A stretch of DNA of 64,000 nt, taken from assembly GCA_965200355.1 (NCBI GenBank), contig OZ241351.1, forward strand, positions 1,564,163 to 1,628,162, read 5' to 3'. The translations under genes and the position numbers were made by a program. The stretch's first letter is position 1, and each line of letters starts with the position of its first letter. The notes below the pieces were generated by a model, which saw only the letters and a list, made by a program, of their open reading frames with translations, ran no database searches and had not been told where the DNA came from. Shown piece by piece: positions 12,003 through 56,383 of the stretch. The DNA comes from an uncultured Candidatus Binatia bacterium. Its GTDB lineage: Bacteria > Desulfobacterota > Binatia > Bin18.

Positions 12003-12006
12003 CACC

Positions 12007-31310: not shown

Positions 31311-31608
31311 GAAAATCGCGGCGCGATTTTCATCGGCCCGGAGTTTGGTACGGTCTCGCGCCCGGATTTGGTGGCTGCGGCTCGTGAAGCCGCGGAGGGC
31401 GGTTTTGACGCGCTGATTACTTGCGCCTTCAATTACGACGCGCGCTCGTCCGAGTTTGACAAGCTCGGTCACATTCCTGTGCTCAAAGCTCGCATGAACG
31501 CCGACCTGCATATGGCCGACGATCTGAAGAACACTGGCAAGGGCAATTTGTTCGTCATTTTTGGCGAGCCGGATATTACCGTGGCGAGTGAAGAGTGGTT
31601 AGTGGATA

Positions 31609-32001: not shown

Positions 32002-32071
32002 CCCCTATCCACTAACCCCTAACCCCTATCCACTAACCCCTATCCACTATCCACTAACCCCTATCCACTAC
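31982..32071. repeat. Tandem array (~6 copies) of the 14-15-bp unit CTAACCCCTATCCAC (reverse complement GTGGATAGGGGTTAG)
   Basis: Read directly; forms the right border of the four-helix-bundle cassette. Confidence 0.9.
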
Positions 32072-34329: not shown

Positions 34330-34433
34330 GGCTGTTCTCGGGTGTGGTGGCGAGTGGCGAGTCGTGAGTGGAAAGTAGAGGGGAGGGCCGGGGTGGACGC
34401 CCCCACTGACCATGCGTCTTGCTCCCCAATTTT

Positions 34434-37295: not shown

Positions 37296-37370
37296 CAGCC
37301 CCCTCGCCCTCGCCCACCAGGGACGAGGGCATAATGTAGGGGCACCCCCCTGCGGTGGCCCGGCCCCCTC
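37296..37370. repeat. Imperfect hairpin (GCCCTCGCCC-ACCA-GGGACGAGGGC) plus a fifth REP-like copy (TAATGTAGGGGCACCCCCCTGCGGTGGCCCGGCC)
   Basis: Read directly, between the cupredoxin gene and the LptFG stop. Confidence 0.6.
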
Positions 37371-39645
37371 AGCCCTGATTGCGCCAGGCAAAGAGGCCGG
37401 CCAGCAGCGCCGCGCCGAGCGCCGGCCCCCAACCGGCCAGGGTGGGAGACAGGAGGCCGCCATAGCCGAGTGAGGCACACACCCCGGTCAACAGCACATA
37501 GCCCACGCCAAGGACGACGCTCACCAGCAGGGTGACGGCTGGGCCCGGAAACGGCGGACCGTGCAGCGCAAAGAACAGGACGATAGCCGGCAGCAACACG
37601 CAGGCCAGGGGGGCGGCGTATTTGACGTTGAGGTCAACCCAATAGGTGGTGACGTCATAGCCGGCGACTTCTGTCCCGCTGATTTCCTGGGCCAACTGCC
37701 AGACGCTCAGGTGCATGGTATCAAGCTGGATATCCGGGGCTTCCCCTAACTGTATGAGCGGCTCGGCCGGCTCGCGCTGAAGGCCGTTTTCCGAGATACG
37801 AATACGCACCGGGTCGTCGAGCTCCCACATCCCATTGCCGATATGCTTGGCGCGGCGCGCATCGGTGCGGCTGAGGGGCAAGCCCTGCTCACTCAGTTCG
37901 TAGATCGACACATCGGTGGCTTCTTCCAGGGCCGGGTCGAGCCGGGTTGCCTGAGACACATGGCTGCCGGCCCGGTACCAGACTATTTTTTGTAAGATAC
38001 CGGTGGGGAGGGTGCGATCCTTGATTTGTGTCTCTTTGAGGCGGTCGGCCAGGGCGTTTGAGCGCGGCACGATGGATTCGTTCAGCACAAAGGAGACGGG
38101 GGTGACAAGGCCGGCAACCAGGAGCAGGCAGGACAGCGGGCGGGTGGCAGAAACCCCGCAGGCGCGCATACCGAGCAGTTCCCGGTGAAAAGACAGCGTG
38201 CTGACGGTGAGAGCGGTTGCCAGCAGCAGGGCCATGGGAACAATGCGTGAGGCCAGCAAGGGGGTGCGGGCGCTGTAGAACCGGAGGGCCTCACGCGGTG
38301 TGGCATGGTGACGGGCAAACCATTCGAGGCGTTCAAGAATATCAACCAGGAGATAACCCATGAGCAAAAAGCCAAAGGCCAGGCCCAACATGAGGAGATA
38401 GTGTTGCAGCACGTAGCGCGGCAAGAGGCAGGGGCGTGTGTGGAGGGCCGCTGGAGCTGCTGCCTCGGTGGGGTCCTGAACCGGCTGTTCAGCGCGTGTG
38501 GGCCGTTTGACCCAGGGCCGGTCTTGCAACCCGAGGAGGAGGCCGGCCAGCCCGCCGACGAGCAGATTGGGCAGCCAGACGCCCAGCCCGACGGGCACTG
38601 CGCCGGCCTGGACAAGCCCGTCGCCGAGTTGGGTGCAGCCGTAATACCCCACGGTCAGCACCAACCCCAGAACGCCGCCCGACGCGCGCGAGAAGCGGGG
38701 GCCCAGATAGACGAGGGGCAGGGCGAACAGGCTGAAAACGATCCCGGCCATCGGCGCTGCAAAACGACGGTGCAGCTCGGTGCGCGCCCCCCGCGCTTGT
38801 GGGTGCTCTCCTGCCAGGGCGGTTGCTCGCACGTGGTCAATCAGCGCCGGCAACGAGAGCCGGGTCAGCGGCTGAGCCGGCCACGTCTCGGTGCGCGGTG
38901 TTTCCCGCAGCACGGTCTCAAAGGTTTGGAAACGGGTCTCTCCCCCGCCTTCCTGGGGGGAGAGGAGTATAACGCCATCGTATAAAATCAGCCGCGCGGT
39001 CCCCTGCGCCAGGGGCTGTACGCGCCCACGTTCGGCAAAAAGCGTCTGTCCGGCAAAATACTCCTGGCTGGTATCCGGCACCCATAAGAGGATGCCGCGC
39101 AGGCTATCCCCCCGGGCCGAAATTTCCCGGGCGCTCATGCGGGCCTCCCCGAACTCATGCACGCGGCCCGGACGTAGCGCCACGCCGGGATTTTGCTGGA
39201 TCATGCGGCCCAGGGCGTCATCCAGCGCGCGCAGGGCGGCGGGGGCGGTAAACAGCGAAAAGCCCAGCCCGAACAGCGTCAGGACCGTGCCAAAGCCCAG
39301 AATCGGCAGCGCCAAATGCCGCCGGGCCAGACCCGCGGCTTCAAGGGCCAGCAGTTCCCGGTCAGACCGGAGACGGCCCAGCCCGACCAGGGTGCCCACC
39401 AGCACGGCAAAGGGCAGGGTGCGAGACAGGAGCGGGACCAACTCATAAAAAGCGATCCAGCCGACCGCGGCCAGGCCCAGACCCCGATTGATTACCAAGT
39501 CAGAGAAGCCGAGCAAGTCTTTGGTCAGCACCAGTGCGGTCAGCCCGAACACGGCCCACAGGGTGGGCGCAAACAATTCGGCGACAATATAAAAGCCGAG
39601 CGGCTGGCCGAGTCGGCGTGGTGAGAAAGACGGGCGGGCACACAT
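37369..39645 (-). CDS. Fused LptF-LptG-like (YjgP/YjgQ family) permease, 758 aa with two tandem permease modules
   Basis: Two successive YjgP/YjgQ-type modules, each with an N-terminal TM bundle, a periplasmic beta-jellyroll region and C-terminal TMs. The second module begins around ...YVLQHYLLMLGLAFGFLLMGYLLVDILERL. Confidence 0.6.
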   Translation of the reverse strand: MCARPSFSPRRLGQPLGFYIVAELFAPTLWAVFGLTALVLTKDLLGFSDLVINRGLGLAAVGWIAFYELVPLLSRTLPFAVLVGTLVGLGRLRSDRELLALEAAGLARRHLALPILGFGTVLTLFGLGFSLFTAPAALRALDDALGRMIQQNPGVALRPGRVHEFGEARMSAREISARGDSLRGILLWVPDTSQEYFAGQTLFAERGRVQPLAQGTARLILYDGVILLSPQEGGGETRFQTFETVLRETPRTETWPAQPLTRLSLPALIDHVRATALAGEHPQARGARTELHRRFAAPMAGIVFSLFALPLVYLGPRFSRASGGVLGLVLTVGYYGCTQLGDGLVQAGAVPVGLGVWLPNLLVGGLAGLLLGLQDRPWVKRPTRAEQPVQDPTEAAAPAALHTRPCLLPRYVLQHYLLMLGLAFGFLLMGYLLVDILERLEWFARHHATPREALRFYSARTPLLASRIVPMALLLATALTVSTLSFHRELLGMRACGVSATRPLSCLLLVAGLVTPVSFVLNESIVPRSNALADRLKETQIKDRTLPTGILQKIVWYRAGSHVSQATRLDPALEEATDVSIYELSEQGLPLSRTDARRAKHIGNGMWELDDPVRIRISENGLQREPAEPLIQLGEAPDIQLDTMHLSVWQLAQEISGTEVAGYDVTTYWVDLNVKYAAPLACVLLPAIVLFFALHGPPFPGPAVTLLVSVVLGVGYVLLTGVCASLGYGGLLSPTLAGWGPALGAALLAGLFAWRNQG

Positions 39646-39727
39646 TGCTGGAAGTCTGTCTGTGAGGGCCGACGGCCTGCTCCTGCTTGATTCGTGGCTG
39701 GTTTTCTCTTATACCGGGCAGAGTCAT

Positions 39728-40534
39728 TCGGCTACTGTGCAGCAATTCATGAAGGCGATTATTTTAAGCGCGGGGCAGGGCAAGCGCCTCCTGCCCCTGA
39801 CCGCAACAACCCCCAAATGTCTGCTACCAGTTGATGGCAGCCGGCCGGCCCTGGAAATCCAACTCCAGACGCTGGCCGCGTGCGGCATTCAACGCGCGAC
39901 GGTTATGACCGGCTTTGGGGCCGACAAGGTGGAACATTTTCTGGCCGGCCGCCGGCTGCCGCAGATTGCCGTGACCACCCGCTTTAATCCGTTCTTTGCC
40001 GTATCGAATAATCTGGCCACGTGCTGGACTGCCATCCCAGAAATGACTGAGGATTTTGTGCTGCTGAACGGCGATACCTTATTTGAGCCGGCGGTGTTAG
40101 AGCGTCTTCTGCTCGCCCCGTTTGCGGCGATCCGTCTGGCGATTGATCGCAAGCCCAGCTATGACGAGGATGACATGAAGGTCTCGATTCGCCACGAGCG
40201 TCTCCTGGCCGCGGTAGGAAAAACACTGTCACCGGCGGTCGTGCATGGCGAATCCATCGGGCTGATGACTGTTCGGGCCAGTGGCGTGTCTGCCTTCCGG
40301 GCTGCCCTGGAGCAGGCCATGCGCGACCCGCGCGGCCTCCAGCGTTGGTATTTATCAGTCATTGATTCTCTGGCCGCCTCCTCCCTGGTCGAAGTGGCCT
40401 CCATTGAGGGGCTGTGGTGGACCGAGACAGATACCCCAGACGACCTGGCCGAGGCCCAAACCCATTTTTCCTCTCAACCGGCGCGCTGCTCCGCTTGTGA
40501 GACCGCGGCACCGGTTGGCGAGCCGTCAAGATAG
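39728..40534 (+). CDS. LicC/MobA-like nucleotidyltransferase (second copy)
   Basis: MKAIILSAGQGKRLLPLTATTPKCLLPV signature. Start set at 39728. Confidence 0.65.
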   Translation, partial: SATVQQFMKAIILSAGQGKRLLPLTATTPKCLLPVDGSRPALEIQLQTLAACGIQRATVMTGFGADKVEHFLAGRRLPQIAVTTRFNPFFAVSNNLATCWTAIPEMTEDFVLLNGDTLFEPAVLERLLLAPFAAIRLAIDRKPSYDEDDMKVSIRHERLLAAVGKTLSPAVVHGESIGLMTVRASGVSAFRAALEQAMRDPRGLQRWYLSVIDSLAASSLVEVASIEGLWWTETDTPDDLAEAQTHFSSQPARCSACETAAPVGEPSR

Positions 40535-43084
40535 GGCCTCGGGCTCGTCCTGATAATGCTGAGCATCGGGCTCCGGGGGAGGGTGAAATCCAAGTAAGCG
40601 GCGGACGTGTTGGGCAACCGTCTCAAACTCGCGCAGGGCCGGGCGAGGGGAGAGCTCGACTGACACCCCAAAAAAACGGGCCATGTCTCTCTGGACGAGG
40701 GCCGCGTGCAAGGCGTTCAGGTCGCGCCGTGGCTGGATAAAGCCGCGTTCGATCAAGCGGGCACACAGATAAGATATGCCGCGTTGCGGCTGGACGCTCC
40801 TGCGGGGGGTGAGCCGTTTCGCCTGCGCTTGGTTGATAACCCATTCCTTGCCGCGTCCCCATATATGATCCGGGCGTTGTGGCAAGGGATAGATATGTAG
40901 TGGGGTGTCCGTGGTCGCGGCTTCAGCCAGCATGGATTCGCTCTCACCAGTCACGATTAAGATATCGGCAAGAGCGAGGTAGCCCATATAGGGATTGGCC
41001 TGGTGGTCGGGCTGCCAGGAGTACACAAAGTGTGATGGTCCCAGTCCCTCACCCAGGGCCGCGGCCGCGGCTGTGCTGGTGCGGCGACTGGTGGTGGCAA
41101 AGACTTTGCCCTTGACGGTCTCGGCAAACGCCCGGACATCTTGTCCCATTTTTCGGGCAATGTGGGGATCAAATTGATAGCGCGGGGTTGCCCCGCCGAC
41201 CAGGAGCATAATCCAGGGATGCGGGGCGTCCTGGACGAGAGGCCGCCAGTGGGCCGCGGCCTGCTGGAGCCGTTCAGGGCTGATTTGGGTCAGTGGCGCG
41301 AGGGTCTCAATCCGGCGCGGATGCGGGGGAAAACGAAAGTGGGCGCAGCCAACACTCACATCTGTTGGCCGGAGCGGACGACTTCCTTTGCGACCGAGTA
41401 TCACGAGTTGGGTCTGTCCCCCACTCTGTTGTTGGACCCAACGGGCAACCTGAGCCGGCTGCCAGCCGGCGGTAATGATCAGGTCGGGCCAGGGCGGGGC
41501 GAGCACATCGGAACGGCCCCGTTCCAAACCCATCAGGGTTGAACGGTGCTTCCCAAGCAGGCCCCCGTATAACAGGCCCGGCTCTCGAAAAGACAGCGTC
41601 TTGGTCGTGTAGGGCCAACCGAGGCTCTTGGCAAGACCGAGCGCTTGGGTTGTGGTGCCCGGCTTGTGGGAGGTGAGGACCCACACCACGGGTTGGCGGC
41701 CGAGGTTCCCCCCACAGACCTGGATGTGCGGGCTGGTGGGAGGCACGGGCTTTTTTTTAGGCGTCCAGCCTCTCCAGCCGGCCCCGTGGCTCATCTCGAT
41801 TGTGAGGTGCCACTGGACGCCTGGGTAGCGAGGGCTGAGGCGGTCCAGATGCGCGCGCCACCAGGCCAGGGGTCGTGCTCGGCCCCGGAGGGGGGGGCCA
41901 TGTGGGAGGGGGTATGCACACGAACCGTGGCTGACCGCAAGACACACAAAGCGCCGAGCGTGGTGAAAGAGGTCTGCCAACATCCAAGGGACATCTTCAT
42001 CGGGAAGAAAATCCAGCGTCGCTGTACACACCACGCCGTCTGCAACTGGGCCGGCGGCAGGGGCTGGGGCGGCGCAGGCTGGGTTATAGTGGGAGACGAG
42101 GGGGTCAGGACGGCGAGTCAAAAAGGGACTGAGGCCAAAAGAGTAATCCAGCAGCGTGCGCTGCGGTGTCGTGGCTCTGAGTTTTTCTACCTGCTCCTGA
42201 AACTCGCGGCTGTGACCATTCCGGGGCGCTGGTCTCGGGCCGGGCGAAGCGTCCCGGAGACGGGCGCACAAGGTCTGGTAGCCGACACTGGGCCGCTGGG
42301 CCTGAAAGACCTGGTAGCCGGCGGCGTCTGCGGTCTGCTCCAGGTCAAACCAGACCTGTCCAACCGGATTGTGCTGGTAGGCGAAGCGCTGAGGAAACGG
42401 CTGCCAGGGCTGAGCATGAATCGTTGTATAGTGTAACAGCTTGGAGCGTTTTGGCGCGTACTCAGTGTCCCGGGCGTTCCAGTCTGGGTCAAGCGCTCCC
42501 CACAGGCCGGGAACGGCGCGGGCCGCAGCCTCTAGCTGCTGGCGCCGCTGCTGTTGGGCGGCCTCCAGCGTCCAGATTGCGGCCATCTGCTCACAATCGA
42601 GCAACATCACCGAGGTATCGTGACCGTGAATGGACAGAAAACCGGCCTTGCCCAGAGGCGTGTCAAACAATGCACCTGGGTCGGCTAAATACAGTTGATC
42701 GGTATCATTATAGAGCGCCCGCCCGTGCCCTTGGGCAAAATACGGGATGGCAAAGCGATAGTTCGTAAAGCCGGTCAGCCAGCCGCGCCGGTCAAAACCG
42801 GCCAAGTCTTTCATCAGGTAGACTGTATAGACACGGGCAGGGTCACGCACCTGTTCAATGGACCAGATAAAAACACGCTCGGCCCGATGCTGGCCCGGCT
42901 CCGTCCCGACAAAGATGCGAACCGGCGGCTGCGCACTCGGGGCCGTCCCTGCCCGGACCCCGAGGACGACCCGTTCGAGTTGGGTCCGGGTGCCCGGTCT
43001 GGCATACGGCTCGGGGCGCAGCATTGCCCGCACGCTCTTGCGCAGTCTTGTGGCAAAATCCGAGACGGCCATAGCGTGGTCCAC
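40526..43084 (-). CDS. Large two-domain putative glycosyltransferase (N-terminal GT-A/GT8-like nucleotide-sugar transferase domain + C-terminal ELM1/DUF1022-like domain)
   Basis: N-terminal region has a DxD-like YNDTDQLYLAD. The C-terminal ~350 aa resemble the ELM1/DUF1022 family (VWVLTSHKPGTTTQALGLAKSLGW). 852 aa. Confidence 0.4.
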   Translation of the reverse strand: MDHAMAVSDFATRLRKSVRAMLRPEPYARPGTRTQLERVVLGVRAGTAPSAQPPVRIFVGTEPGQHRAERVFIWSIEQVRDPARVYTVYLMKDLAGFDRRGWLTGFTNYRFAIPYFAQGHGRALYNDTDQLYLADPGALFDTPLGKAGFLSIHGHDTSVMLLDCEQMAAIWTLEAAQQQRRQQLEAAARAVPGLWGALDPDWNARDTEYAPKRSKLLHYTTIHAQPWQPFPQRFAYQHNPVGQVWFDLEQTADAAGYQVFQAQRPSVGYQTLCARLRDASPGPRPAPRNGHSREFQEQVEKLRATTPQRTLLDYSFGLSPFLTRRPDPLVSHYNPACAAPAPAAGPVADGVVCTATLDFLPDEDVPWMLADLFHHARRFVCLAVSHGSCAYPLPHGPPLRGRARPLAWWRAHLDRLSPRYPGVQWHLTIEMSHGAGWRGWTPKKKPVPPTSPHIQVCGGNLGRQPVVWVLTSHKPGTTTQALGLAKSLGWPYTTKTLSFREPGLLYGGLLGKHRSTLMGLERGRSDVLAPPWPDLIITAGWQPAQVARWVQQQSGGQTQLVILGRKGSRPLRPTDVSVGCAHFRFPPHPRRIETLAPLTQISPERLQQAAAHWRPLVQDAPHPWIMLLVGGATPRYQFDPHIARKMGQDVRAFAETVKGKVFATTSRRTSTAAAAALGEGLGPSHFVYSWQPDHQANPYMGYLALADILIVTGESESMLAEAATTDTPLHIYPLPQRPDHIWGRGKEWVINQAQAKRLTPRRSVQPQRGISYLCARLIERGFIQPRRDLNALHAALVQRDMARFFGVSVELSPRPALREFETVAQHVRRLLGFHPPPEPDAQHYQDEPEALS

Positions 43085-43087
43085 CTT

Positions 43088-44830
43088 TTACGCGGTTTGC
43101 TGTACGTAAGGAGGCGAAGCCGCGGTGTCAACTGGCCTGAGCTGGCCGGCCTCCAGGCGATACACGTGGTCAGCAATATCCAACAACGCCGGCTGGTGGG
43201 ATATCGCCAGGATGGTCATTGTGCCCCGCAGGCGCTGAACGGTCTGGCAAATAGCGGCCTCGCTCTCAGGGTCAAGCGCGGTGGTGGCTTCATCCAGAAT
43301 GAGGAGTTGGGGCGCATGGACGAGCGCCCGCGCAATGGCAATCCGCTGTCGCTGGCCCCCGGACAATCGGGCGCCCCGCTCTCCGACCCTGGTTGACATT
43401 CCGTCCGGCAGGCTCTGCACAAACTCCCACGCCTCGGCGGCGCGTAAGGCCGCTTTGACGTCGGCTTCTGTCAGCCCGCTATCGCCCAGCGTCACATTGG
43501 CAAAGACGCTTTCGTGGAGCAGCAGCATTTCTTGCGGAACATAGCCGATAGCCGTGCGCCACGCGGTCAGGTCCATTGAGGTCAGCGGCACCCCGTCGAT
43601 AGCGACGGCGCCGCTCTGGGGCTGGAGCAGGCCGGCAATCAGGTCTACCGTAGACGTTTTCCCCGTTCCTGACGGGCCGATAAGGAGGGTCACATGTCCG
43701 GCTGGAATGATGCACGAGGCCCGCTCAAGGATGGGTTTCTCGGCATACGCAAAGCTGACTTCCTGGAGGGTAACGCTGTGGGTCAGCTGGGGGTGGCGGG
43801 TGCCGGTGTTGGTCTCTCTGGCCGCCTCTGACTGCTGGAGGGTGTCTTGGAGAGACCAGTAGGCGCTCTCCCGAGCGGCCATGCGCTGATACTGACGCTG
43901 GGCCTTGTTCAGGCTGCTCAGGGTGCGCCCGAACAGCAGAACCAGCATAATCACCGCGTCAATAGACAGCGCCCAGTACGTGAGGGCAATATACAGGCCC
44001 CCAACCAGACAAGCGATCAGCAGCGGGTCCTGTAAGGCGCGGAGCGCCTCATTGCTCAGGACTTCGCGCTGCAAGGCGCGGTTTAAGCGTTGGGTACTCC
44101 GCTCGAGCAGGGGGCCGACCTGCGTCTCGCGGCCCATCGCCTTGAGCGGCTTGACCGCGTACAGCACGTCGGTCAGTTGTCCGAGCACGGCCTTGAGCAG
44201 AACCGTCTGGCGGGCTCCGGCCCGCCGCGCCAACCGGACGAGGCGATGTAAGCCAAAGATGAGCAGTGCCCCAAACAGGGCCGCCCCCAGGGTCGCCGAC
44301 CAGGAGACAGAAACGGCAAGGATGACGTATAAGAGGGTTTGGATGCTGAAGGCCAGAATCGTGACCGCATACAGATAGGCTTCAGAGGCCCGCGTGGCTT
44401 CGGTCGCAAACGCATTGGCAAAGCCGCCGACCGGCTGGCGCACATAGTATTCCCAGCGAGCGGCCAGGAGGGAGCGCAACAGGCACAGCCGCAGGTCGGT
44501 GGCCACATGGGCGACCATATAGCCGACCTGCTTTTGGGCGAGCAGGACAAAGGCCGCTTTGAGGAGCATACCGGCGACGATGATCAGACACAGCAGGCCG
44601 ATGCTGGGCTGAAGACCAAACATGGCCAGGACCGCCCGGCTGGTCTGTTCCAGGCTGGTGGGAGTGGTGTCGGGTGAGAGGGCTGGATTGTGGACCCGGG
44701 TTGCCAGACCCAAGAGCGGCAAGAGGCTGGAGAAACTCAGGCCCTCGGCAAAGGTTGCGAATATGAGACAGGCCAGGGTGAGCGCGCTCCGTCCGGGATA
44801 GGCGCGGGCAAAGGCAAGCAGGAGACGCAT
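43088..44830 (-). CDS. ABC exporter, fused TMD-NBD (MsbA/lipid-A-exporter-like)
   Basis: 6-TM domain, then Walker A GPSGTGKTS, signature LSGGQRQRIAIARAL, Walker B LILDEATTALD. Confidence 0.85.
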   Translation of the reverse strand: MRLLLAFARAYPGRSALTLACLIFATFAEGLSFSSLLPLLGLATRVHNPALSPDTTPTSLEQTSRAVLAMFGLQPSIGLLCLIIVAGMLLKAAFVLLAQKQVGYMVAHVATDLRLCLLRSLLAARWEYYVRQPVGGFANAFATEATRASEAYLYAVTILAFSIQTLLYVILAVSVSWSATLGAALFGALLIFGLHRLVRLARRAGARQTVLLKAVLGQLTDVLYAVKPLKAMGRETQVGPLLERSTQRLNRALQREVLSNEALRALQDPLLIACLVGGLYIALTYWALSIDAVIMLVLLFGRTLSSLNKAQRQYQRMAARESAYWSLQDTLQQSEAARETNTGTRHPQLTHSVTLQEVSFAYAEKPILERASCIIPAGHVTLLIGPSGTGKTSTVDLIAGLLQPQSGAVAIDGVPLTSMDLTAWRTAIGYVPQEMLLLHESVFANVTLGDSGLTEADVKAALRAAEAWEFVQSLPDGMSTRVGERGARLSGGQRQRIAIARALVHAPQLLILDEATTALDPESEAAICQTVQRLRGTMTILAISHQPALLDIADHVYRLEAGQLRPVDTAASPPYVQQTA

Positions 44831-44878
44831 GGCGAGAAGAGCGGCAGAGTGTGGAGACGGGAAGGAGCCCAGGGCGCG

Positions 44879-46123
44879 CTAGCGCGCGGCGCGTTCCTCT
44901 CTATTCCAGAACTGGACCACGCGCAGGGAGTGTAAACCGAAGGAAACGGCCTGCCAGACCACTATCAGGGCAAAGGTCAGCACCGGGAAGCCCAGGAGCA
45001 GGCCGACCATGAAGACGGGAACGTTGATATTCCGTCGCGAGATCCACGTTCGCATCCGCTCATCAAACCGCGTACAGCCATGAATAGACCGGCCAACCCG
45101 GGCGCTGAACAACGCGGCGACGATACGGTCCGCAACATACAAGACCGCCATCCAGACGGCCAACTGCATCACCGGAGCGGTCAGAGTTCCGGCCCCTAAT
45201 GCCCACGCCCAGGCAAAATACCATAACGGCGGATGGATGATGTCCAGGCCGTGGTCCAGAATATCGCCCAGCCGGGAGGCGCTGAAGGTCAGACGGGCCA
45301 GCTTACCGTCAACAGAATCCAGCACACTCATGGTGTAGGCCAGGCTAAAAGCTGTGACCCAATAGCCCTGGGCAAAGAGGGGTATGGCCAGGAAGGTGAG
45401 GCCGACATTCAAAAGCGAAACCAGGTTGGGATGCACCCGCCAGCGCGCCAGCGGACGAACGACGCGCCAGACTAAGGGCGGGTAGACATATTTGGTAAAG
45501 AAATCGGTCGAGCCCTTATAATTGGACCAGAACAGAAAACGTTCCGCCCGGTCCCGGCCGGTGGGGTTGACAATGCGAAACAGATAGACGGGCAGGTCGC
45601 GCCGCAGCTTGCGGATATAGGATGGAACGTCACTGAGGCGCACCTCCTGTAGGCTTCCGTGCTGTATGTTTTTCTGGGCAAGCTCGGGCGGGGAGAGACC
45701 CGGCGTGTCGGCGTTGAGCAGCGAAACGTCTCCGTCCAGGCGCAGGACCGCGGTCTGCTCTGGGCCGCAGTCCCCACGGGCCGCCCAGGAACCGGACCGG
45801 CCGGCAAGATGGCGCAGGAGCCGGCTGTCAACCACGGCCCGAGCCTCCAGGACAAGCAGGGGGCTGTTGGGGGTGTCTGGCGGCAGACCGGTCCGATAGT
45901 CCGCCAGCGTTTGAGCGCCCTCCCCCCACTGGAGCGGAAGTTTCTGCCTCAGGCGGGCGGGGAGGAGTGAAGGCAGATGGGTGGTCTCAGCGGCAAGTTG
46001 AATATAGACCGCGCTTAGCTCCAGGCCGGCTTCAAGCAGCGTATGGAGCTGGCGTTCAAGCAGCGTCATGCCGAAGACGCGGAGTGCGCTCCTCGGGTCT
46101 GTTGCGTCAATCCAAATACGCAT
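44879..46123 (-). CDS. CDP-alcohol phosphatidyltransferase-family membrane protein with an N-terminal degenerate NTP-transferase-like domain (IPCT/DIPPS-like architecture), copy 1
   Basis: Start set at MRIWIDATD. C-terminal motif DSVDGKLARLTFSASRLGDILDHGLD (D-G-x2-A-R...G-x3-D-x3-D). Paralogous to 51780..53015. Confidence 0.65.
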   Translation of the reverse strand: MRIWIDATDPRSALRVFGMTLLERQLHTLLEAGLELSAVYIQLAAETTHLPSLLPARLRQKLPLQWGEGAQTLADYRTGLPPDTPNSPLLVLEARAVVDSRLLRHLAGRSGSWAARGDCGPEQTAVLRLDGDVSLLNADTPGLSPPELAQKNIQHGSLQEVRLSDVPSYIRKLRRDLPVYLFRIVNPTGRDRAERFLFWSNYKGSTDFFTKYVYPPLVWRVVRPLARWRVHPNLVSLLNVGLTFLAIPLFAQGYWVTAFSLAYTMSVLDSVDGKLARLTFSASRLGDILDHGLDIIHPPLWYFAWAWALGAGTLTAPVMQLAVWMAVLYVADRIVAALFSARVGRSIHGCTRFDERMRTWISRRNINVPVFMVGLLLGFPVLTFALIVVWQAVSFGLHSLRVVQFWNREERAAR

Positions 46124-46179
46124 CTTGATTCTCAGGAGGCTCAGGACTATCAGTACGAAAGCCGAAAGGAAATCCCGCA

Positions 46180-47015
46180 ACATGCAGCAGCACGGCCATT
46201 CTGAAAATGCCCAACCTGCCGAGCAGCCTGGTCTGACGGCCTTGGTGCTTGCCGGACGCCGCGGGCCGCAGGAGAGGGTCGCCCAGGCCGCGGGCCAGAG
46301 CCACAAAGCCTGTATCCCGGTTGCCGGCGTCCCCATGCTCGTGCGGGTGCTGACCAGCCTCCGAACGGCTGGGCCGGTGCGGGACATCGTGGTCAGTAGC
46401 GACGATGCGTCAGTCCTGGCCGACTGTGGGGAGGCCGGCGGGGTCAGATTCCACGCCAGTCAAGCCTCTCCGGCAGCCAGTGTGCTGGATTACTTTGAAG
46501 CGCACGGAGCACGGGGTCCGGTGCTGGTGACAACGGCTGACCATGCGCTGCTCACCCCGGTTATGGTCAAGTATTTCTGTACTGCGGCCCAGCACTGCGA
46601 GGCCGATATCGTTATTGGGCTGGTCTCCGCTTCACTCTTTCGCGCGTCATATCCCGCGTCACGCCGGACCTTTCTCGTGTTGGCAGATGAGGGCTGGAGC
46701 GGAACGAATCTTTTTCTCCTGCGGACCGCACAGGCGGCGCGGGCGGTGCGGTTTTGGGTGCGCGCCGGGCAGTTTCGGAAGCGACCCTGGCGGCTGGTGA
46801 GTACGTTTGGATGGGGGAATCTGGTGCGCCTGCTCTGTCGTCGGCTCGACCGGCCGGCGGCTCTGGTCCAGGCTTCCCGCGTTCTGGGTGCCCGGGTCGG
46901 CCTGGTCGAGATGCCATTTGCCGAGGCGGCCCTTGATGTAGACACTCCTGCGGACCTGGTGATGGTTGAACATATCCTGGCCGCCCGTGAACAAGACGGC
47001 CAAACGGACATCTGA
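46180..47015 (+). CDS. MobA-like NTP-transferase-fold protein (third nucleotidyltransferase-like gene)
   Basis: ALVLAGRRG...ACIPVAGVPMLVRVLTSLRTAG pattern; start at MQQHGHS with an AAAGGAAA SD. Confidence 0.5.
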
Positions 47016-47035: not shown

Positions 47036-47755
47036 ATGGCCAAGAGGCACGATATCGAAACCCTGATGGAACAGACGGAGCAGCCGTTCAACTCGCCAGC
47101 GTTTGATACCTTCACCGCGGCCTGGGCAGTCTCGCAACGCACGAAGAAAGCCGCAGAAACGCCGGACCGAGCCGAGGTTCAGTCCACCCCGGACGCGCAG
47201 CCGGACCAGACCCCGGCTGTGGAAAATGACCCGGAAGTTTTACGCCGCAAAACAGAACATATGTTTCACGGCCCTGTGCTTGATACCTTTACCGCGGCCT
47301 GGGCAGCCTCAAAGGACAAGATCAAACCCCGTCCCGCACCCAAGCCGAACAATGAGCATATTGTCCGCCAGATTTATACCCATCTCTGCATGGCCGGGAT
47401 GCAGGGCGACGTGAGGCCCATCCTCCAGCCGTTGTCGGACGCTGTGGAATGGCACTCGCCCGGACCCGAGGCCATCCCCTGGGCCGGGACCGTCCGGGGG
47501 CGCAAGCAGGTCGTGGAGTGGTTTGCCACGCGCGGCAAAACGCTAGAGGTCGAACAATTGGTGCCCAGAGAATTCATTACGCAGGGCAATCAGGTGATTG
47601 TCATGTGCCAGGAACGCAGCCGGGTGAGGGCCACCGGCAAAAGGTACGACGTGGCCGTCATGGCCGCCTGGACCCTGCTGCACGGTGTCGTGACGCATTA
47701 TCGTGAGGCGTATGATACGGCGACGGTGCTGGCCGCCTTGATTTCTTCTTCCTGA
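47036..47755 (+). CDS. Hypothetical protein with duplicated N-terminal ~30-aa motif and C-terminal SnoaL/NTF2-like domain
   Basis: FNSPAFDTFTAAWAVSQ and FHGPVLDTFTAAWAASK are internal repeats; a 27-bp exact DNA repeat occurs at 47102 and 47278. The C-terminal ~120 aa resemble ketosteroid-isomerase/SnoaL-like domains. Confidence 0.4.
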   Translation: MAKRHDIETLMEQTEQPFNSPAFDTFTAAWAVSQRTKKAAETPDRAEVQSTPDAQPDQTPAVENDPEVLRRKTEHMFHGPVLDTFTAAWAASKDKIKPRPAPKPNNEHIVRQIYTHLCMAGMQGDVRPILQPLSDAVEWHSPGPEAIPWAGTVRGRKQVVEWFATRGKTLEVEQLVPREFITQGNQVIVMCQERSRVRATGKRYDVAVMAAWTLLHGVVTHYREAYDTATVLAALISSS

Positions 47756-48170: not shown

Positions 48171-49478
48171 TCACGGCTTTATCAAGCCAATCACGTATTC
48201 CTGGTGCATTCGTTCCTCGATTTGTGAATGTCTTTGTGACCCCCAGCGGGCCGGCATCATGCGTTTGTCGCGGGCCAGATGGCGAACGCCAATGCCGGTC
48301 AACTCAAAGCCAACTTTTTCACCGAGGGCGGCCAAGCCTTTATGGGTTTCGACATCCAGACCGCGGAGGTTTGAGGTGCCAACAACAATCACTGCTGGCT
48401 TGCCTTTTTTCAAAACGCGCCCCATCTCCCCGATTACCGCGGCCATCTCACCGAAATAGCGCCGCAGGGCCGCGGCCTTTTTTGCGTCTCGTTCGGCCAG
48501 TTGTGTCAGCGTTGTTTCGCATTGTCGGGGTAAATCGTTGAATTGAGTCGGGCCGGCCGTGTCGTGTCCTAGATAGTGCGCGCGAATCCTGGACAGGGTG
48601 TCGATAGGCCAACCAAACCAGACCAGCGAGAACTTATGCGCCCGCATGTAATCAATCGCGTTGTTGGCATAGGGTGGTGAGGTCACGATGAGATCAACGC
48701 TGGCAGACGGCAAGCCAGTGTTGGCCGCGCCGGCCGCCAGAACGCGGGCAGGGTGCTGTGGTGTCGTCGTATAGGCGGCATTGGTGCTGAGGGTCTGTTT
48801 CAGTCGCTTGGTGAATTCGACGAACCCCGAGTTGGGTTTTTTGTCAACGACCCTATGCGGGCGCGTATGCGCCAAGTCGCGGGCCAGCGAAACGCCGCCG
48901 GATTTTGCAATAATGGTTGACGAAAAAACAATCTTGAAGAAAGTTTGCAGCCCCTCTGGTTGGACTTTTTCGATGCCTTGCAACAGCGCGAGGAGTTCCA
49001 ACTGCTGTTGGGGGACAAACCAGAAATCAATAAACGCGCGCGTTTTCGGATCAAAACGCCGGTCCAGGGCGTATTCCAGTTGGTCACGGTCTCGGTGCAG
49101 GGCACGTTGGGCTGCATGGATCAACCCGGTTCCGGTTTCCCATGCGTAGGCTGCGTTGACAGGACGCAGCTTGGCCGTCGCAATCAGGCGCGCGAGGGGG
49201 TCAATATCACAGCCGATGGCCCGCCGGCCCAGACGCGCGGCCTCTACCAGGGTCGTGCCTGAGCCGGACATGGGATCAAGCACGACCTCGCCGGCGTCCG
49301 TGAAAGATTCGATGAAAAACTGTGGGAGTTGTGGCGGAAATTTAGCGGGAAAGGGATGCCACGTATGAGTGGTGTGCTTTTGGTTTGCGCCGTGGAAATC
49401 CAGGTCGGCGCGTAAGGCTGCCGGCAAGCGGGTACGGCAATGAGCGTGCAGACGGTTTCCTGGAGTACTCGTCATCTC
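48171..49478 (-). CDS. DNA amino-methyltransferase (N6-adenine or N4-cytosine; motif I then motif IV order, alpha-class), apparently orphan
   Basis: Start set at MTSTPGN; the upstream part of the ORF is low-complexity and overlaps the protease gene. Motif I DPMSGSGTT, motif IV SPPY (IVTSPPYANNAIDY). No restriction-endonuclease candidate adjacent. Confidence 0.7.
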   Translation of the reverse strand, partial: EMTSTPGNRLHAHCRTRLPAALRADLDFHGANQKHTTHTWHPFPAKFPPQLPQFFIESFTDAGEVVLDPMSGSGTTLVEAARLGRRAIGCDIDPLARLIATAKLRPVNAAYAWETGTGLIHAAQRALHRDRDQLEYALDRRFDPKTRAFIDFWFVPQQQLELLALLQGIEKVQPEGLQTFFKIVFSSTIIAKSGGVSLARDLAHTRPHRVVDKKPNSGFVEFTKRLKQTLSTNAAYTTTPQHPARVLAAGAANTGLPSASVDLIVTSPPYANNAIDYMRAHKFSLVWFGWPIDTLSRIRAHYLGHDTAGPTQFNDLPRQCETTLTQLAERDAKKAAALRRYFGEMAAVIGEMGRVLKKGKPAVIVVGTSNLRGLDVETHKGLAALGEKVGFELTGIGVRHLARDKRMMPARWGSQRHSQIEERMHQEYVIGLIKP

Positions 49479-49587
49479 GGAGGTGGTAAGCAGCTTTTTG
49501 TTTATCGGACCGTCGGGACCAGGCCTGAATTGCCCCGACGGCGGGAAAACCGTGCACAATGGAGCGTCAGGCGGTGAAACCGAGGAG

Positions 49588-50622
49588 CTACGTTGCCTGG
49601 AGCGCTTCTGCACTATCCGGGTTTTTGGGGGTGGGGGCCGGACGAAAATACCGCTCTCTGTCCGAGGAACGCACGGTAACGTCTTTGATCTCGGTCCCGT
49701 GGAGGAGGGTGAGGGTGATATCGGCCCCGGCCTCCCCAACCGCCCACAGCTTGCGATAGAAGTCGGCTTGGTCTTTGACCGGCTGACCGGCAACCTTGAG
49801 GACCAAATCGTTGATCTGCACCCCGGCTTGCTCTGCCGGCCCGTCCGGTGCCACAAACATGATAATCAGCTTATCGCGGAACTCCTCGGTAAAGAGTCCG
49901 AGCCAGGGCCGCGGGGCGGCCTTGGTGCGGCCGGTCCGAATCAGGTCGGTGAGGATGGGCTTGAGATGGTCAATCGGCACAAACATATTCCCGGCCAAAG
50001 ACTCCCGGCCGGGCAGGGCGTCATTGACTAACAGCGAGCCAATGCCCAGCAGCTTGCCGTCCGGTCCAATCAGCGCAGCGCCGGCATAGCGGGGATGTGG
50101 CGGGGCGGTGAAAATGGCGTCTTCGAGCAGGTATTCCCAATAGCCGGCAAATTCTCGCCGTGAGGTCACCAAAGTCGGGCGGACCGAAGCCGCATTGCTG
50201 TCGCTGGCAATAATGACTTCTGTCCGCTCAGCCAAGTCGGCAGACCTGCCAAGTGGCATGGGGGTCACGTTGAGGGGTTCGTTGGCGCGTAAAAGACCAA
50301 AACCGGTTTGGGTGTCATGGGCCACAACGGTGGCCAGGATGGGTTTCCCGTCTATGCCCGTGACCTCAACCCGGCGGGCTTCCATGACCAAATAGCCGAT
50401 GGTGAGAATATGCCCCTGGGTATCAATGACCACGCCGCTCCCGCTCCGTTGTTCCCCAAGAAACTGGGCCGTGCGCGCACTGGCCGGGACCTCAGCCCGA
50501 ATCGTCACCATGGCGGACAGGACATCGCTGGCGACGGGCTCCGGAACGGCCAACTGCGGGCTGAACACCGGGGTCAGGAGACCGACCCAGAACAGCAGTA
50601 ACGACGATGGGCGGGTATTCAT
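49588..50622 (-). CDS. HtrA/DegP-like trypsin-fold periplasmic protein with one PDZ domain; catalytic Ser (and probably Asp) substituted
   Basis: Signal peptide, trypsin-fold, PDZ (GVQINDLVLKVAGQPV). The position aligned to GNSGGPL reads YAGAALIGP (Ser to Ala). Confidence 0.55.
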   Translation of the reverse strand: MNTRPSSLLLFWVGLLTPVFSPQLAVPEPVASDVLSAMVTIRAEVPASARTAQFLGEQRSGSGVVIDTQGHILTIGYLVMEARRVEVTGIDGKPILATVVAHDTQTGFGLLRANEPLNVTPMPLGRSADLAERTEVIIASDSNAASVRPTLVTSRREFAGYWEYLLEDAIFTAPPHPRYAGAALIGPDGKLLGIGSLLVNDALPGRESLAGNMFVPIDHLKPILTDLIRTGRTKAAPRPWLGLFTEEFRDKLIIMFVAPDGPAEQAGVQINDLVLKVAGQPVKDQADFYRKLWAVGEAGADITLTLLHGTEIKDVTVRSSDRERYFRPAPTPKNPDSAEALQAT

Positions 50623-50624
50623 AA

Positions 50625-51641
50625 TCAGACTCTCTGTGCAGACTGCTCTGCTTCTAGCGCCAGGTTTGTGGAAGAGTCAAGAGTGAGGCCGGGCGAGAGA
50701 GGCTGCTCGGCAGCATGGTGGAAACTGGCTGTTTTCGGGTCATACCCGCGGGCGGTCAGGGTGATCTGAAAACGCGGTCGCCCGTTCGCCGTGCCGTATG
50801 ACACGATCCGATACAAGTGGTAGCGTGAGCGCCGCTGTGGCCGCCGACCAATCGCCGCGGAGGCGGGGACCCCGACAACCGGAATCGGCCCCCAGGGTCC
50901 GGGGATACTCGCCCTGACGGTGCGGTGCACATGGCCGTGCAGAATAAGCTCCGCGCCAGTTTTGGCGAGCACGGCCCGTAAGTCAGCCGCGTCGGTGAGG
51001 CGGCGGCGGGCCGTGAGGGCGATGGGTTGGGGCGGATGGTGAATGAGCACGACCCGACACAAGGGCGTGTTTGCCAAGGCGTGCAGGAGCCGCTCAAGTC
51101 GGTCGAGTTGCGTTTGACCGACCGTGCCTGAAGCAGAGAAGGGGGCTGTTGCGCGCGCGGTTGAGACGCCGACCAGGGCGACCGGTCCGCAGGTCCGCAG
51201 GGTTGGAAACTCGGTTGGCGGAAAGTCTGGGGGCAGCCGCGTCGGACCTGACCACGTATCCGGCAGGATATGCGAGCGCATATAGTCGCCCCAATATGCC
51301 CACGGACAAGATTCGCTCCGGCGCGTATAGGTGTCATGGTTGCCGGGGATCAGGGAAACGCGCTGTGGGCCGCCCATTTTTTGCAACCACGGGAGGGAGG
51401 CGGAGAACTCGTCTTCGAGCGCCACATTCGTCAGGTCGCCGGTAATGACCACATGGCCCGGCCCTTGGGTGTGTAAATCGTCAATCAGCGCGGCCAGGAC
51501 TTCGGGGCGGTATTCCTTGCGACGCCGCAAGGACCACGACACGACGCCCAAGACGCGCTTGTTCAGAATATCTCCGGGACGCCGGACCCGGACCGGGGTG
51601 ACGTGCAGGTCTGATAAATGGGCAAGCGTAAAGGCTGGCAT
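50625..51641 (-). CDS. Calcineurin-like metallophosphoesterase
   Basis: LSDLHV...VVITGDLTN...GNHD...HGHVH motif series. Confidence 0.8.
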   Translation of the reverse strand: MPAFTLAHLSDLHVTPVRVRRPGDILNKRVLGVVSWSLRRRKEYRPEVLAALIDDLHTQGPGHVVITGDLTNVALEDEFSASLPWLQKMGGPQRVSLIPGNHDTYTRRSESCPWAYWGDYMRSHILPDTWSGPTRLPPDFPPTEFPTLRTCGPVALVGVSTARATAPFSASGTVGQTQLDRLERLLHALANTPLCRVVLIHHPPQPIALTARRRLTDAADLRAVLAKTGAELILHGHVHRTVRASIPGPWGPIPVVGVPASAAIGRRPQRRSRYHLYRIVSYGTANGRPRFQITLTARGYDPKTASFHHAAEQPLSPGLTLDSSTNLALEAEQSAQRV

Positions 51642-56192: not shown

Positions 56193-56383
56193 ACAGGAGC
56201 CTCTATAAGAGCGACCGGAACAGCCCTGTCAAGAGCAGAGGGTTAAGAGCGAAGGGTCAAGAGCGAAGGGTGAATCGATGGGGAAGCCTCTGAGGAACAG
56301 CGTCATTCTCAGGCAGGCACGCGGCTGGCTGTGTTGCCCCTTGGTTAAAAGGGAGAAATCTGTTATCTAGCGTCCGACTTTAC

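Follow-up and report, generated by a model that had tools for sequence, protein, structure and literature searches.

The stretch of DNA analysed here (the window) comprises 64,000 nt from the genome of an uncultured Candidatus Binatia (Binatota) bacterium. Pfam and NCBIfam searches confirmed that the five genes listed in a preliminary description exist with the domain content claimed there: two small nucleotidyltransferases (NT1 and NT2), a large transferase (ELM1big), an ABC exporter (ABC) and a CDP-alcohol phosphotransferase (CDPOH1). CDPOH1, ABC and ELM1big are oriented in the same direction and separated by 48 and 15 nt. The NT1 reading frame spans positions 39662-40534 (+) and opens with a GTG at 39662; translation probably begins at the ATG at 39749, since this methionine is where the alignments with homologues begin, and position 39728, previously given as the start, is not a start codon. 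For CDPOH1, a 502-aa ORF was rejected as an over-extension. Functions were assigned by homology, and the proposed pathway steps draw in addition on gene context.

Table 1. Features of the gene cluster, numbered by window position. The ceramide core genes occupy 55056-59894.
Feature	Position	Strand	Basis
Fused LptF-LptG permease (LptFG), 758 aa, divergent from NT1	37369-39645	-	PF03739 twice
NT1, CpgD-like (IPCT/LicC-fold) cytidylyltransferase, 261 aa from ATG	39749-40534	+	PF00483/PF12804
ELM1big, three-domain transferase, 848 aa	40526-43072	-	
ELM1big, ELM1/KdoT-like GT-B domain, about aa 450-830	40583-41725	-	
ELM1big, methyltransferase-like domain, about aa 300-430	41783-42175	-	
ELM1big, GT8 domain, about aa 30-262	42287-42985	-	
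ABC half-transporter, exporter fold; putative flippase of the completed lipid	43088-44830	-	ABC_membrane + ABC_tran
CDPOH1, CDP-alcohol phosphotransferase, 414 aa	44879-46123	-	
CDPOH1, membrane domain, aa 208-413	44885-45502	-	
CDPOH1, N-domain, degenerate nucleotidyltransferase fold, aa 1-200	45524-46123	-	
NT2, MobA/CofC-like nucleotidyltransferase, 277 aa	46182-47015	+	PF12804, 3.5e-13; weak CofC TIGR03552 match
SnoaL-like protein, 20 nt past NT2	47036-47755	+	PF12680
Metallophosphoesterase, CC_1158 equivalent	50625-51641	-	PF00149
CDPOH2, paralogous CDP-alcohol phosphotransferase	51780-53015	+	PF01066
DAGK_cat lipid kinase, CpgB (ceramide kinase) equivalent	53112-54089	+	PF00781; synteny
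CpgC-like protein, no significant family match	54104-55087	+	Faint Pol-beta nucleotidyltransferase match, E 0.36
Fatty-acid desaturase	55056-56192	-	Pfam
CerR-like reductase	56384-57433	+	Pfam
Serine palmitoyltransferase (Spt)	57360-58724	+	Pfam; NCBIfam top matches are serine palmitoyltransferase models, 529 bits
bCerS-like GNAT	58752-59894	+	Pfam

The five genes had been described as a second island. The gene order in 80 related loci and on two annotated plasmids showed instead that they are contiguous with the downstream ceramide genes and form one cluster. Using the window proteins in tblastn searches of these 80 loci, we found a conserved order of CpgC-like gene, kinase, CDPOH2, metallophosphoesterase, NT2, CDPOH1, (ABC, ELM1), NT1 and LptFG. 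Among the 50 loci flanked by at least 7 kb on either side, NT2 was present in 40, ABC in 31, CDPOH2 in 30 and ELM1 in 27, and the metallophosphoesterase was kept beside CDPOH2 in 32 of the 50 as well as in both plasmid clusters. In Binatia, Myxococcota-type MAGs, Dongiaceae and the Diaphorobacter plasmid, the head-group genes are interleaved with those for the ceramide kinase, the CpgC-like protein, the metallophosphoesterase, Spt and the bCerS-like protein. The earlier proposal that genes for head-group activation and transfer are linked to sphingolipid synthesis was supported.

The cluster corresponds gene for gene to the Caulobacter CPG2 cluster (CC_1152-CC_1161) as described in PMC11324152. 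On Roseomonas pRo-1 and Diaphorobacter pDCB2, annotated clusters follow the order CC_1152-CC_1161, with HIT, LptF/G and metallophosphoesterase genes among them, and this gene order agrees with that description. Orthology to CpgA and CpgD is deduced from synteny via these intermediate genomes and from residue numbering rather than from alignment. We consider it rather probable that the island forms one half of a single phosphosphingolipid cluster, responsible for extending the head group, for glycosylation and for export, and that this cluster is homologous to the Caulobacter CPG/CPG2 cluster.

NT1 matched the IPCT part of NF041135 and PDB 4jd0 over its full length and is 50% identical to the nucleotidyltransferase at the CC_1152 position of the Diaphorobacter cluster. 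Its residues G9, R13, K23, N107-G108-D109, M143 and K158 fit G12, R16, K26, N110-G111-D112, M147 and K161 of CpgD by residue numbering, not alignment; in CpgD, the N-G-D and Met residues contact glycerate (PMC13228409). CpgD is a CTP:phosphoglycerate cytidylyltransferase, for which CDP-glycerate synthesis has been demonstrated biochemically (PMC12275187). In contrast, the inositol enzyme 4jd0 (IMPCT) has C-G-D and Ser where NT1 has N-G-D and Met. Because the cluster matches CC_1152-CC_1161 gene for gene and NT1 shares the glycerate-contact residues of CpgD, phosphoglycerate is the best-supported head group, as in Caulobacter CPG2, with weaker cases for inositol and AEP. It is better supported than inositol-P, AEP, ethanolamine-P and glycerol-P, which had been put forward before.

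If NT1 were instead a CTP:inositol-1-phosphate cytidylyltransferase, CDPOH1 could move inositol-phosphate from CDP-inositol onto ceramide, and the GT8 domain could glycosylate the inositol to give a glycosyl-inositol-phosphoceramide. GT8 enzymes acting on inositol are known, such as plant IPUT1, which glycosylates inositol on GIPC. NT1 and CDPOH1 match the IPCT/DIPPS NCBIfam model with 49 and 31 bits, but the family cut-off is 580; these hits and the full-length alignment of NT1 with 4jd0 do not discriminate, since the best structural match of CpgD itself is IMPCT (PMC12275187). A separate nucleotidyltransferase and CDP-alcohol transferase pair has also been proposed for Bacteroidetes inositol lipids, but those clusters adjoin MIPS (PMC9246714). 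Pfam analysis of nearly all window ORFs of at least 150 aa revealed no inositol-phosphate synthase. None was seen either in the cluster portion of L045, a compact related locus whose ORFs of at least 200 aa inside the cluster are all explained by cluster genes, apart from one overlapping ORF pair at the contig end. Together with the NT1 residues and the gene-for-gene match to Caulobacter, this makes the inositol reading quite unlikely.

The paralogous CDP-alcohol transferase reported earlier was confirmed as CDPOH2, which is 36% identical to CDPOH1 over residues 81-404 (E 5e-53). In line with the preliminary description, the two are not ordinary PgsA, PssA or PcsA enzymes; among solved structures, AF2299 and IPCT/DIPPS come closest to them. 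In CDPOH1 the CDP-alcohol catalytic motif is intact. Its N-domain is degenerate, as had been claimed: the sequence has neither the G-x-G-x-R loop nor the PK lysine, both found in NT1, and it is therefore unlikely that the domain makes its own CDP donor. CDPOH2 forms a separate clade, nearly always located beside a metallophosphoesterase, kinase or CpgC-like gene. The single Roseomonas copy, in a Caulobacter-like arrangement, is 42% identical to CDPOH2 and 34% to CDPOH1. By synteny through intermediate genomes, and not by alignment with CpgA, we regard CDPOH2 as the equivalent of CpgA (CC_1159). As only one CDP-alcohol transferase takes part in CPG2 synthesis in Caulobacter, the reaction assigned to CDPOH1 below is tentative.

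NT2 is the positional equivalent of Caulobacter CC_1153; it matched PDB 2dpw (TTHA0179, 4e-18) and is 44% and 39% identical to the nucleotidyltransferase that neighbours a bCerS-like gene in the clusters of Roseomonas and Diaphorobacter, respectively. The SnoaL-like gene adjoins NT2 with 50-87% identity in most close Binatia loci (L002-L016, L018 and L034) and partially in L026 and L037. The CpgC-like protein is 35% identical to the hypothetical gene following the kinase in Roseomonas.

The third small nucleotidyltransferase of the preliminary description, PntC-like, was located at 10171-10917 next to an AEP transaminase. It could provide CMP-AEP, from which CDPOH1 would transfer aminoethylphosphonate to ceramide; sphingophosphonolipids occur in some bacteria. 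The transaminase scored over its NCBIfam cut-off, a split phosphonopyruvate decarboxylase and an LicC-like nucleotidyltransferase are present, and PDB 6pd1 (PntC-AEPT) aligns with NT1-type nucleotidyltransferases. However, the AEP genes are flanked by the HpnK-like and HpnN-like hopanoid genes, at a distance of about 30 kb, and PEP mutase was not found in the window. In the 80 related loci, the PntC-like query matched only NT1 near CDPOH1 (about 30% identity), no AEP module was seen beside CDPOH1, and the partners of CDPOH1 were consistently NT1 and NT2. We therefore regard a phosphonolipid product as highly unlikely.

ELM1big had been described as a two-domain GT-A and ELM1 transferase; the ELM1 assignment held, but there are three domains, the middle one a methyltransferase-like fold in which no conserved SAM motif was found. 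The second Arg of the KdoT SRRT motif is required for activity (PMC12856342). Here the motif is invariant in the ELM1 domain, and its second Arg is retained in Dongia. Homologues are named 'ELM1/GtrOC1 family putative glycosyltransferase' by NCBI. A free-standing ELM1 gene of Dongia stops 4 nt short of a CDPOH1-clade gene and has ABC exporters nearby; ELM1, CDP-alcohol transferase and ABC exporter genes recur together in Dongiaceae. In Entotheonellaceae, ELM1big (49% identical), a nucleotidyltransferase, ABC (50%) and a CDP-alcohol transferase form one operon. Since the nucleotidyltransferase and CDP-alcohol transferase of this module are only 34% and 28% identical to their window counterparts and no sphingolipid genes were found within 10 kb, the acceptor lipid of ELM1big and ABC need not be a sphingolipid.

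For ABC, the best NCBIfam matches were the HepA family and then MsbA (225 bits, cut-off 602), with 203 against a cut-off of 1000 for PglK; the best full-length bacterial structure match was PglK (7e-51). The protein is an exporter of the PglK/MsbA fold. A relative in the Diaphorobacter sphingolipid cluster is 47% identical. LptFG scored 297 bits with TIGR04408 (LptG), over the cut-off, and 222 bits with TIGR04407 (LptF; cut-off 230). Ties to Lpt transport and to a KdoT-like glycosyltransferase had been missed before.

LptFG, an ABC exporter and a KdoT-like enzyme would also be expected in an ordinary LPS pathway. ELM1big, ABC and LptFG could be ordinary LPS genes, with roles as core transferase of the KdoT type, flippase of the MsbA type and housekeeping Lpt permease, that happen to lie near sphingolipid head-group genes because both sets serve the outer membrane. 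The KdoT substrate is Kdo2-lipid A, GT8 enzymes, LgtC among them, take part in LPS core synthesis, the LptG score exceeds its cut-off, and a KdsD-like arabinose-5-phosphate isomerase is encoded 3 kb beyond LptFG. We consider this unlikely, however: LptF/G lies inside the sphingolipid cluster in four lineages, adjoining NT1 or CDPOH1 (Binatia, Myxococcota-type, Dongiaceae and plasmid clusters, one plasmid conjugative), and the Caulobacter cluster likewise has a dedicated LptF2/LptG2 (PMC11324152). Moreover, the Diaphorobacter sphingolipid cluster contains the ABC gene without any ELM1 gene, ELM1 genes are operon-like with CDP-alcohol transferases in Binatia, Dongiaceae and Entotheonellaceae, and no lpx or waaA genes were found in the window.

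The cluster probably serves to make an acidic outer-membrane sphingolipid, attach sugars to it and export it; it is related to the ceramide-diphosphoglycerate system of Caulobacter but has additional, uncharacterised enzymes. Ceramide would be formed by the Spt, bCerS-like and CerR-like proteins (56-60 kb) and phosphorylated by the CpgB-like kinase, and the CpgC-like protein, CDPOH2 and the metallophosphoesterase (50.6-55 kb) would supply the first anionic head group. NT1 would convert CTP and 2-phosphoglycerate to CDP-glycerate, as CpgD does, while NT2 may produce a second nucleotide-activated intermediate. CDPOH1, with a probably non-catalytic N-domain, would then use a CDP donor to add one more phospho-acid or phospho-alcohol unit to the lipid head group. 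Sugars would be attached by ELM1big, with UDP-hexose as predicted donor for the GT8 domain and probably a CMP-activated acidic sugar for the ELM1/KdoT-like domain. Finally, ABC would flip the lipid over the inner membrane, and LptFG would pass it to the Lpt bridge towards the outer membrane.

Compared with Caulobacter crescentus CC_1152-CC_1168 (CpgA-D, CC_1153, CC_1158, LptF2/G2), a proteobacterial system, the Binatota cluster has the same gene families in the same relative order, traced through Roseomonas and Diaphorobacter: IPCT-fold cytidylyltransferase, CofC/MobA-like nucleotidyltransferase, bCerS-like GNAT, LptF/G, metallophosphoesterase, PF01066 transferase with cytoplasmic N-domain, ceramide-kinase-type DAGK, CpgC-like protein and Spt. 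It differs in having two deeply diverged PF01066 paralogs rather than one, fused LptF and LptG, the ABC exporter in place of the Wzx-like flippase CC_1166, and no HIT gene; the SnoaL-like gene and the GT8-methyltransferase-like-ELM1 enzyme are additions, Caulobacter having no ELM1 gene. New are the deeply separate CDPOH1 clade, the ABC flippase candidate and the fused glycosyltransferase. In the CDPOH proteins, as in archaeal IPCT/DIPPS (PDB 4mnd) and AF2299 (4o6m), a cytoplasmic domain of nucleotidyltransferase fold precedes a CDP-alcohol phosphotransferase domain that has six helices and carries the complete catalytic motif. However, identity is only 16-18%, separate nucleotidyltransferase genes accompany the degenerate N-domain, and the context is a membrane lipid pathway rather than a compatible-solute pathway. 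Like MsbA and PglK, flippases of lipid-linked substrates, ABC is a half-transporter and aligns with PglK over its full length, but it is below both NCBIfam cut-offs, nearest to the HepA model, and has relatives in sphingolipid clusters. ELM1big shares PF06258, the GT-B fold and the SRRT motif with Acinetobacter baumannii KdoT (A1S_2903, GtrOC1), an ELM1-like CMP-Kdo transferase. Whereas KdoT, encoded in an LOS core locus, has a single domain and a mass of about 35 kDa, the ELM1 domain here is the C-terminal third of a fusion protein whose gene shares an operon with those for a CDP-alcohol transferase and an ABC exporter.

The five genes and the domains that the preliminary description had assigned to them were borne out by Pfam and NCBIfam: the CpgD-like nucleotidyltransferase NT1, the glycosyltransferase ELM1big, an ABC exporter, the CDP-alcohol phosphotransferase CDPOH1 and the MobA/CofC-like nucleotidyltransferase NT2. 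Gene boundaries were refined using gene calls on an identical metagenomic contig and exact protein matches; a 502-aa ORF for CDPOH1 was rejected as an over-extension. CDPOH1, the ABC exporter and ELM1big share one direction and are separated by gaps of 48 and 15 nt. NT2 and CDPOH1 are divergent with 58 nt between them, a SnoaL-like gene follows NT2 after 20 nt, and a fused LptF-LptG permease gene (LptFG) is divergent from NT1. Other Binatia contain a short-chain dehydrogenase and an acyl-CoA dehydrogenase between ELM1big and NT1 (L010, 15755-17682); the window lacks this pair, and here the 3' ends of ELM1big and NT1 overlap by 9 nt. Scans for promoters and terminators gave no signal above shuffled expectation.

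Coordinates of the head-group genes and their paralogues in the window
Feature	Position	Strand	Remarks
LptFG	37369-39645		fused LptF-LptG
NT1	39662/39749-40534	+	homologue alignments begin at ATG 39749
ELM1big	40526-43072	-	848 aa
ABC exporter	43088-44830	-	
CDPOH1	44879-46123	-	414 aa
NT2	46182-47015	+	277 aa
Third small nucleotidyltransferase	10171-10917		
CDPOH2, CDP-alcohol transferase paralogue	51780-53015		36% identity to CDPOH1, E 5e-53

In a scan with one genome per species the closest relatives were Candidatus Binatia MAGs with at most 79% identity over the full length and one partly matched locus at 85%. More distant relatives (40-52%) were found in Myxococcota-type, 'Deltaproteobacteria', Terriglobia-labelled and Dongiaceae genomes. 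Comparison of 20 window proteins with 80 related loci by tblastn revealed a recurrent gene order: Spt/reductase/desaturase, CpgC-like, DAGK-type kinase, CDPOH2, metallophosphoesterase, NT2, CDPOH1, (ABC, ELM1), NT1 and LptFG. In Dongiaceae the order is metallophosphoesterase, LptF, LptG, CDPOH1, fatty-acid hydroxylase, GNAT, NT2 and NT1. On plasmid pRo-1 of Roseomonas gilardii an NTase, a bCerS-like gene, desaturase, LptF/G, HIT and metallophosphoesterase are followed by only one CDP-alcohol transferase, a kinase and a gene annotated as hypothetical. In Diaphorobacter the IncP plasmid pDCB2 comprises NT1 (50% identical), NT2, GNAT, CDPOH1 (40%), LptG, LptF, HIT, metallophosphoesterase, CDPOH2 (44%), CpgC-like, desaturase, kinase and ABC (47%). 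This conjugative plasmid stems from Diaphorobacter sp. JS3051 (L083; NZ_CP065408.1, 53-68 kb), and mercury-resistance genes adjoin the cluster.

The order on both plasmids is that of CC_1152-CC_1161 from Caulobacter according to Olea-Ozuna et al. (PMC11324152). There, CC_1152 (CpgD) and CC_1153 are nucleotidyltransferases required for ceramide diphosphoglycerate (CPG2), CC_1155/56 encode LptG2/LptF2 and CC_1158 encodes a phosphoesterase; CpgA (CC_1159) belongs to PF01066 and carries a cytoplasmic domain at its N-terminus, CpgB (CC_1160) acts as the ceramide kinase, and CC_1161 corresponds to CpgC (PMC11324152). Because this order is conserved in related loci, on plasmids and in Caulobacter, the genes previously regarded as a second island instead make up the remaining half of one phosphosphingolipid cluster. 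In Myxococcota-type loci, L050 and L044 among them, CDPOH1 directly adjoins NT1-LptFG, and therefore ABC plus ELM1big behaves as an inserted module. Between the two cluster halves of the window a DNA methyltransferase ORF (48171-49856; N6_N4_Mtase, 366 aa in the gene call) coincides with a G+C dip to 0.57. Most related Binatia show remnant matches of 13-14% to this ORF and 40-76% is matched in L006, L011 and L016; it has the look of a variable insertion.

Concerning the head group, CpgD was shown to make CDP-glycerate, and structurally it is matched best by the inositol enzyme IMPCT (PMC12275187); IPCT-like hits therefore do not discriminate between donors. NT1 has the position of CpgD, next to a CC_1153-type nucleotidyltransferase in a sphingolipid cluster, and its homologues (46-63% identical) adjoin NT2 or CDPOH1 and LptFG in related loci and on pDCB2. 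In CpgD the nucleotide is contacted by G12, R16, T88, N90, T93 and G111 and glycerate by N90, N110, M147, K161 and S170 (crystal-structure preprint PMC13228409), and the catalytic residues R16, K26 and D112 are conserved with IMPCT (PMC12275187). NT1 has G9, R13, K23, S86/N87/N88/T91, N107-G108-D109, M143, K158 and S169, matched to CpgD by numbering rather than by a true alignment, with an offset of mostly 3-4 and of 1 at S169. When IMPCT (4jd0) was aligned to NT1, Cys and Ser were found at the positions of N107 and M143 (CpgD N110 and M147).

Inositol phosphate and 2-aminoethylphosphonate (AEP) had been named among the possible head groups. Proposed CDP-inositol clusters of Bacteroidetes adjoin MIPS; in contrast, no inositol-phosphate synthase was detected among the Pfam-annotated ORFs of the window, and in the compact locus L045 every ORF of at least 200 aa inside the cluster is a cluster gene, except for two overlapping ORFs at the end of the contig. 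The AEP genes themselves are genuine: the AEP transaminase passes its NCBIfam cut-off. They are located about 30 kb from the head-group genes among hopanoid genes, no PEP mutase was found in the window, and in the tblastn comparison AEP genes were next to CDPOH1 in none of the 80 related loci. The AEP module (10171-13088) consists of a PntC-like NTase, the transaminase and a phosphonopyruvate decarboxylase split into two ORFs, and is flanked by a YdjC/HpnK-like gene (9094-10023) and an MMPL/HpnN-like gene (13113-15980); its product may conceivably be a hopanoid decorated with AEP or some other molecule of the envelope. Owing to the CpgD-type residues, the lack of a recognizable inositol-phosphate synthase in the window and the remote AEP genes, phosphoglycerate appears to be the best-supported donor for NT1, an assignment which rests on residue numbering. 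The earlier interpretation thus holds in part: uncommon lipid head groups are supported, the candidates named for them (inositol phosphate, AEP and others) less so than phosphoglycerate.

CDPOH1 scores 36-37 bits against PF01066 (cut-off 22) and contains the complete family signature D-x2-D-G-x2-A-R-x7-8-G-x3-D-x3-D across transmembrane helices 2-3 (LDSVDGKLARLTFSASRLGDILDHGLD), here with an x8 spacing. Residues D269, D272, G273, A276, R277, G286, D290 and D294 are invariant in sets of 11 and 59 sequences. At the start of the N-domain (MRIWIDATDPRSALRVFGM) the G-x-G-x-R loop and the lysine are missing, both of which are present in NT1 (MKAIILSAGQGKRLLPLTATTPK), and this justifies the earlier term 'degenerate'. 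A true bifunctional IPCT/DIPPS (NF041135) requires a competent N-terminal cytidylyltransferase domain and a score above the equivalog cut-off; this identity was ruled out for CDPOH1 because the nucleotide-binding loop is lost.

The CDPOH1 family is small (159 clusters at 50% identity with E<=1e-30 in a set of 1.84 billion representatives). When 120 sequences were placed in a neighbour-joining tree, they fell into two deep clades, CDPOH1 and CDPOH2. In this tree CDPOH2-type genes nearly always adjoin the kinase, the metallophosphoesterase or a CpgC-like gene, and CDPOH1-type genes mostly adjoin NT1, NT2, LptFG, ABC, ELM1 or GNAT. The position of a CpgA ortholog, between the metallophosphoesterase and ceramide kinase/CpgC, is occupied by CDPOH2 and not by CDPOH1, a CpgA-type paralog. 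A single CDP-alcohol transferase, belonging to the CDPOH2 type, is present in Caulobacter and Roseomonas, whereas Binatia, Myxococcota-type genomes, Dongiaceae and Diaphorobacter possess CDPOH1 as a second transferase, usually next to the CpgD-like NTase. Even for CpgA itself, the use of CDP-glycerate to convert ceramide phosphoglycerate (CPG) to CPG2 is a proposal. The simplest reading would be that CDPOH1 adds a further phospho-acid onto the head group. Some larger proteins of 740-842 aa (P0297, P0326, P0331, P0338, P0357 and P0385) combine a CDPOH1-like region with a further, fused domain of ~380 aa.

ELM1big had been described as a two-domain transferase, a reading now replaced by three domains. 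The GT8 part, with a GT-A fold, contains a D-x-D motif, in which D123 is invariant and D125 nearly so, and the C-terminal metal/donor motif H...(K/Q)PW as invariant H214...Q221-P222-W223 (59 homologues). An active methyltransferase in the middle domain is unsupported because the region of SAM-binding motif I is unconserved in these homologues. The ELM1/KdoT part exceeds the Pfam gathering score of PF06258, has a GT-B fold and includes the conserved SRRT motif ('TTSRRT'), with S662-R664-T665 invariant in the same set. The only characterised bacterial ELM1 protein is KdoT from Acinetobacter, an inverting GT-B CMP-Kdo transferase with the SRRT motif by the donor carboxylate and with the second Arg required for activity (PMC12856342, PMC10936431). 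KdoT uses CMP-Kdo as donor and Kdo2-lipid A as acceptor, and the gene context of ELM1big differs from an LOS core locus. A gene for a KdsD/KpsF-like arabinose-5-phosphate isomerase (33682-34413; SIS domain only, 243 aa, 183 bits with a cut-off of 204) is situated 3 kb past LptFG; its product could provide the KdoT-like domain with a Kdo-type sugar or serve plain LPS synthesis.

In three lineages, Binatia (operon-like), Dongia and Entotheonellaceae, ELM1 genes are linked with CDP-alcohol transferases. The stand-alone ELM1 of Dongia (PF06258 at 7e-53, 31% identical, SPRT instead of SRRT) stops 4 nt short of a third CDPOH1-clade gene, and two ABC exporters are close by. This locus of Dongia sedimenti (L067, 8786-17091) also contains two genes without family match, its ABC exporters are convergent, and the main sphingolipid cluster of this genome (L079) is ~20 kb away. 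In an Entotheonellaceae MAG (JBHZQT010000015.1; L084, 10001-16861) a four-gene operon encodes ELM1big (49% identity to the window), an NTase (34%), ABC (50%) and a CDP-alcohol transferase (28%). No sphingolipid genes (ceramide, kinase) were found within 10 kb of this operon, which limits confidence in a sphingolipid acceptor for the window; ELM1big and ABC may act together on different anchors or head groups.

NT2 passes PF12804 (50.5 bits, cut-off 27) and reaches 30.8 bits against CofC (TIGR03552; cut-off 105); its closest structure is the uncharacterised TTHA0179. The ABC exporter scored 225 bits against MsbA (TIGR02203; equivalog cut-off 602), and an MsbA ortholog was ruled out in favor of an ABC exporter of the same fold. 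It accompanies the cluster even without ELM1, as on pDCB2, and is a candidate flippase replacing the Wzx-like CC_1166 of Caulobacter.

Elsewhere in the window a ResIII-type helicase (893 aa) and a large N6_N4 DNA methyltransferase (930 aa) at 25562-32015, with a lower G+C content (0.56-0.57 at 28-32 kb), possibly represent a restriction-modification or defence insertion. A TonB-dependent receptor (968-2901) is divided into two overlapping ORFs, barrel 968-1843 and plug end 1771-2901, a possible frameshift or pseudogene.

Taken together, homology and gene context, from which each functional step is deduced, indicate a CPG2-type phosphosphingolipid cluster in Binatota; biochemical support is confined to two Caulobacter proteins, CpgB and CpgD, and to KdoT from Acinetobacter. 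Compared with the Caulobacter cluster, the new elements are the fused GT8/ELM1 glycosyltransferase, the ABC flippase candidate and the extra, conserved CDP-alcohol transferase clade, a candidate for an additional or as yet unassigned head-group step. In Caulobacter, anionic sphingolipids can partly replace LPS. Our literature search for Binatota and sphingolipid found no report, and the CPG-type pathway seems to reach into an uncultured phylum. The ABC exporter and the fused LptFG are a candidate flippase and extractor. The link of ELM1/KdoT-type enzymes to CDP-alcohol transferases in three lineages suggests a role of bacterial ELM1 beyond LPS core synthesis, and the conjugative IncP plasmid of Diaphorobacter is a possible vehicle for the horizontal spread of outer-membrane sphingolipid synthesis.

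A bolder and, in our judgement, rather improbable reading is that Binatia and several other lineages build an LPS-like glycolipid on a ceramide anchor, which is capped, flipped and carried to the outer membrane. If so, a poly-anionic head group of the phosphoglycerate type would be extended by the CDPOH1 clade and capped by the fused GT8/ELM1 protein with a Kdo-like acidic sugar and a hexose, before the dedicated ABC exporter flips the glycolipid and the dedicated LptFG takes it to the outer membrane. NTase, CDP-alcohol transferase, ELM1big and ABC would then form a portable 'phospho-glycolipid assembly and export' cassette, which would also work on other lipid anchors, as in Entotheonellaceae.
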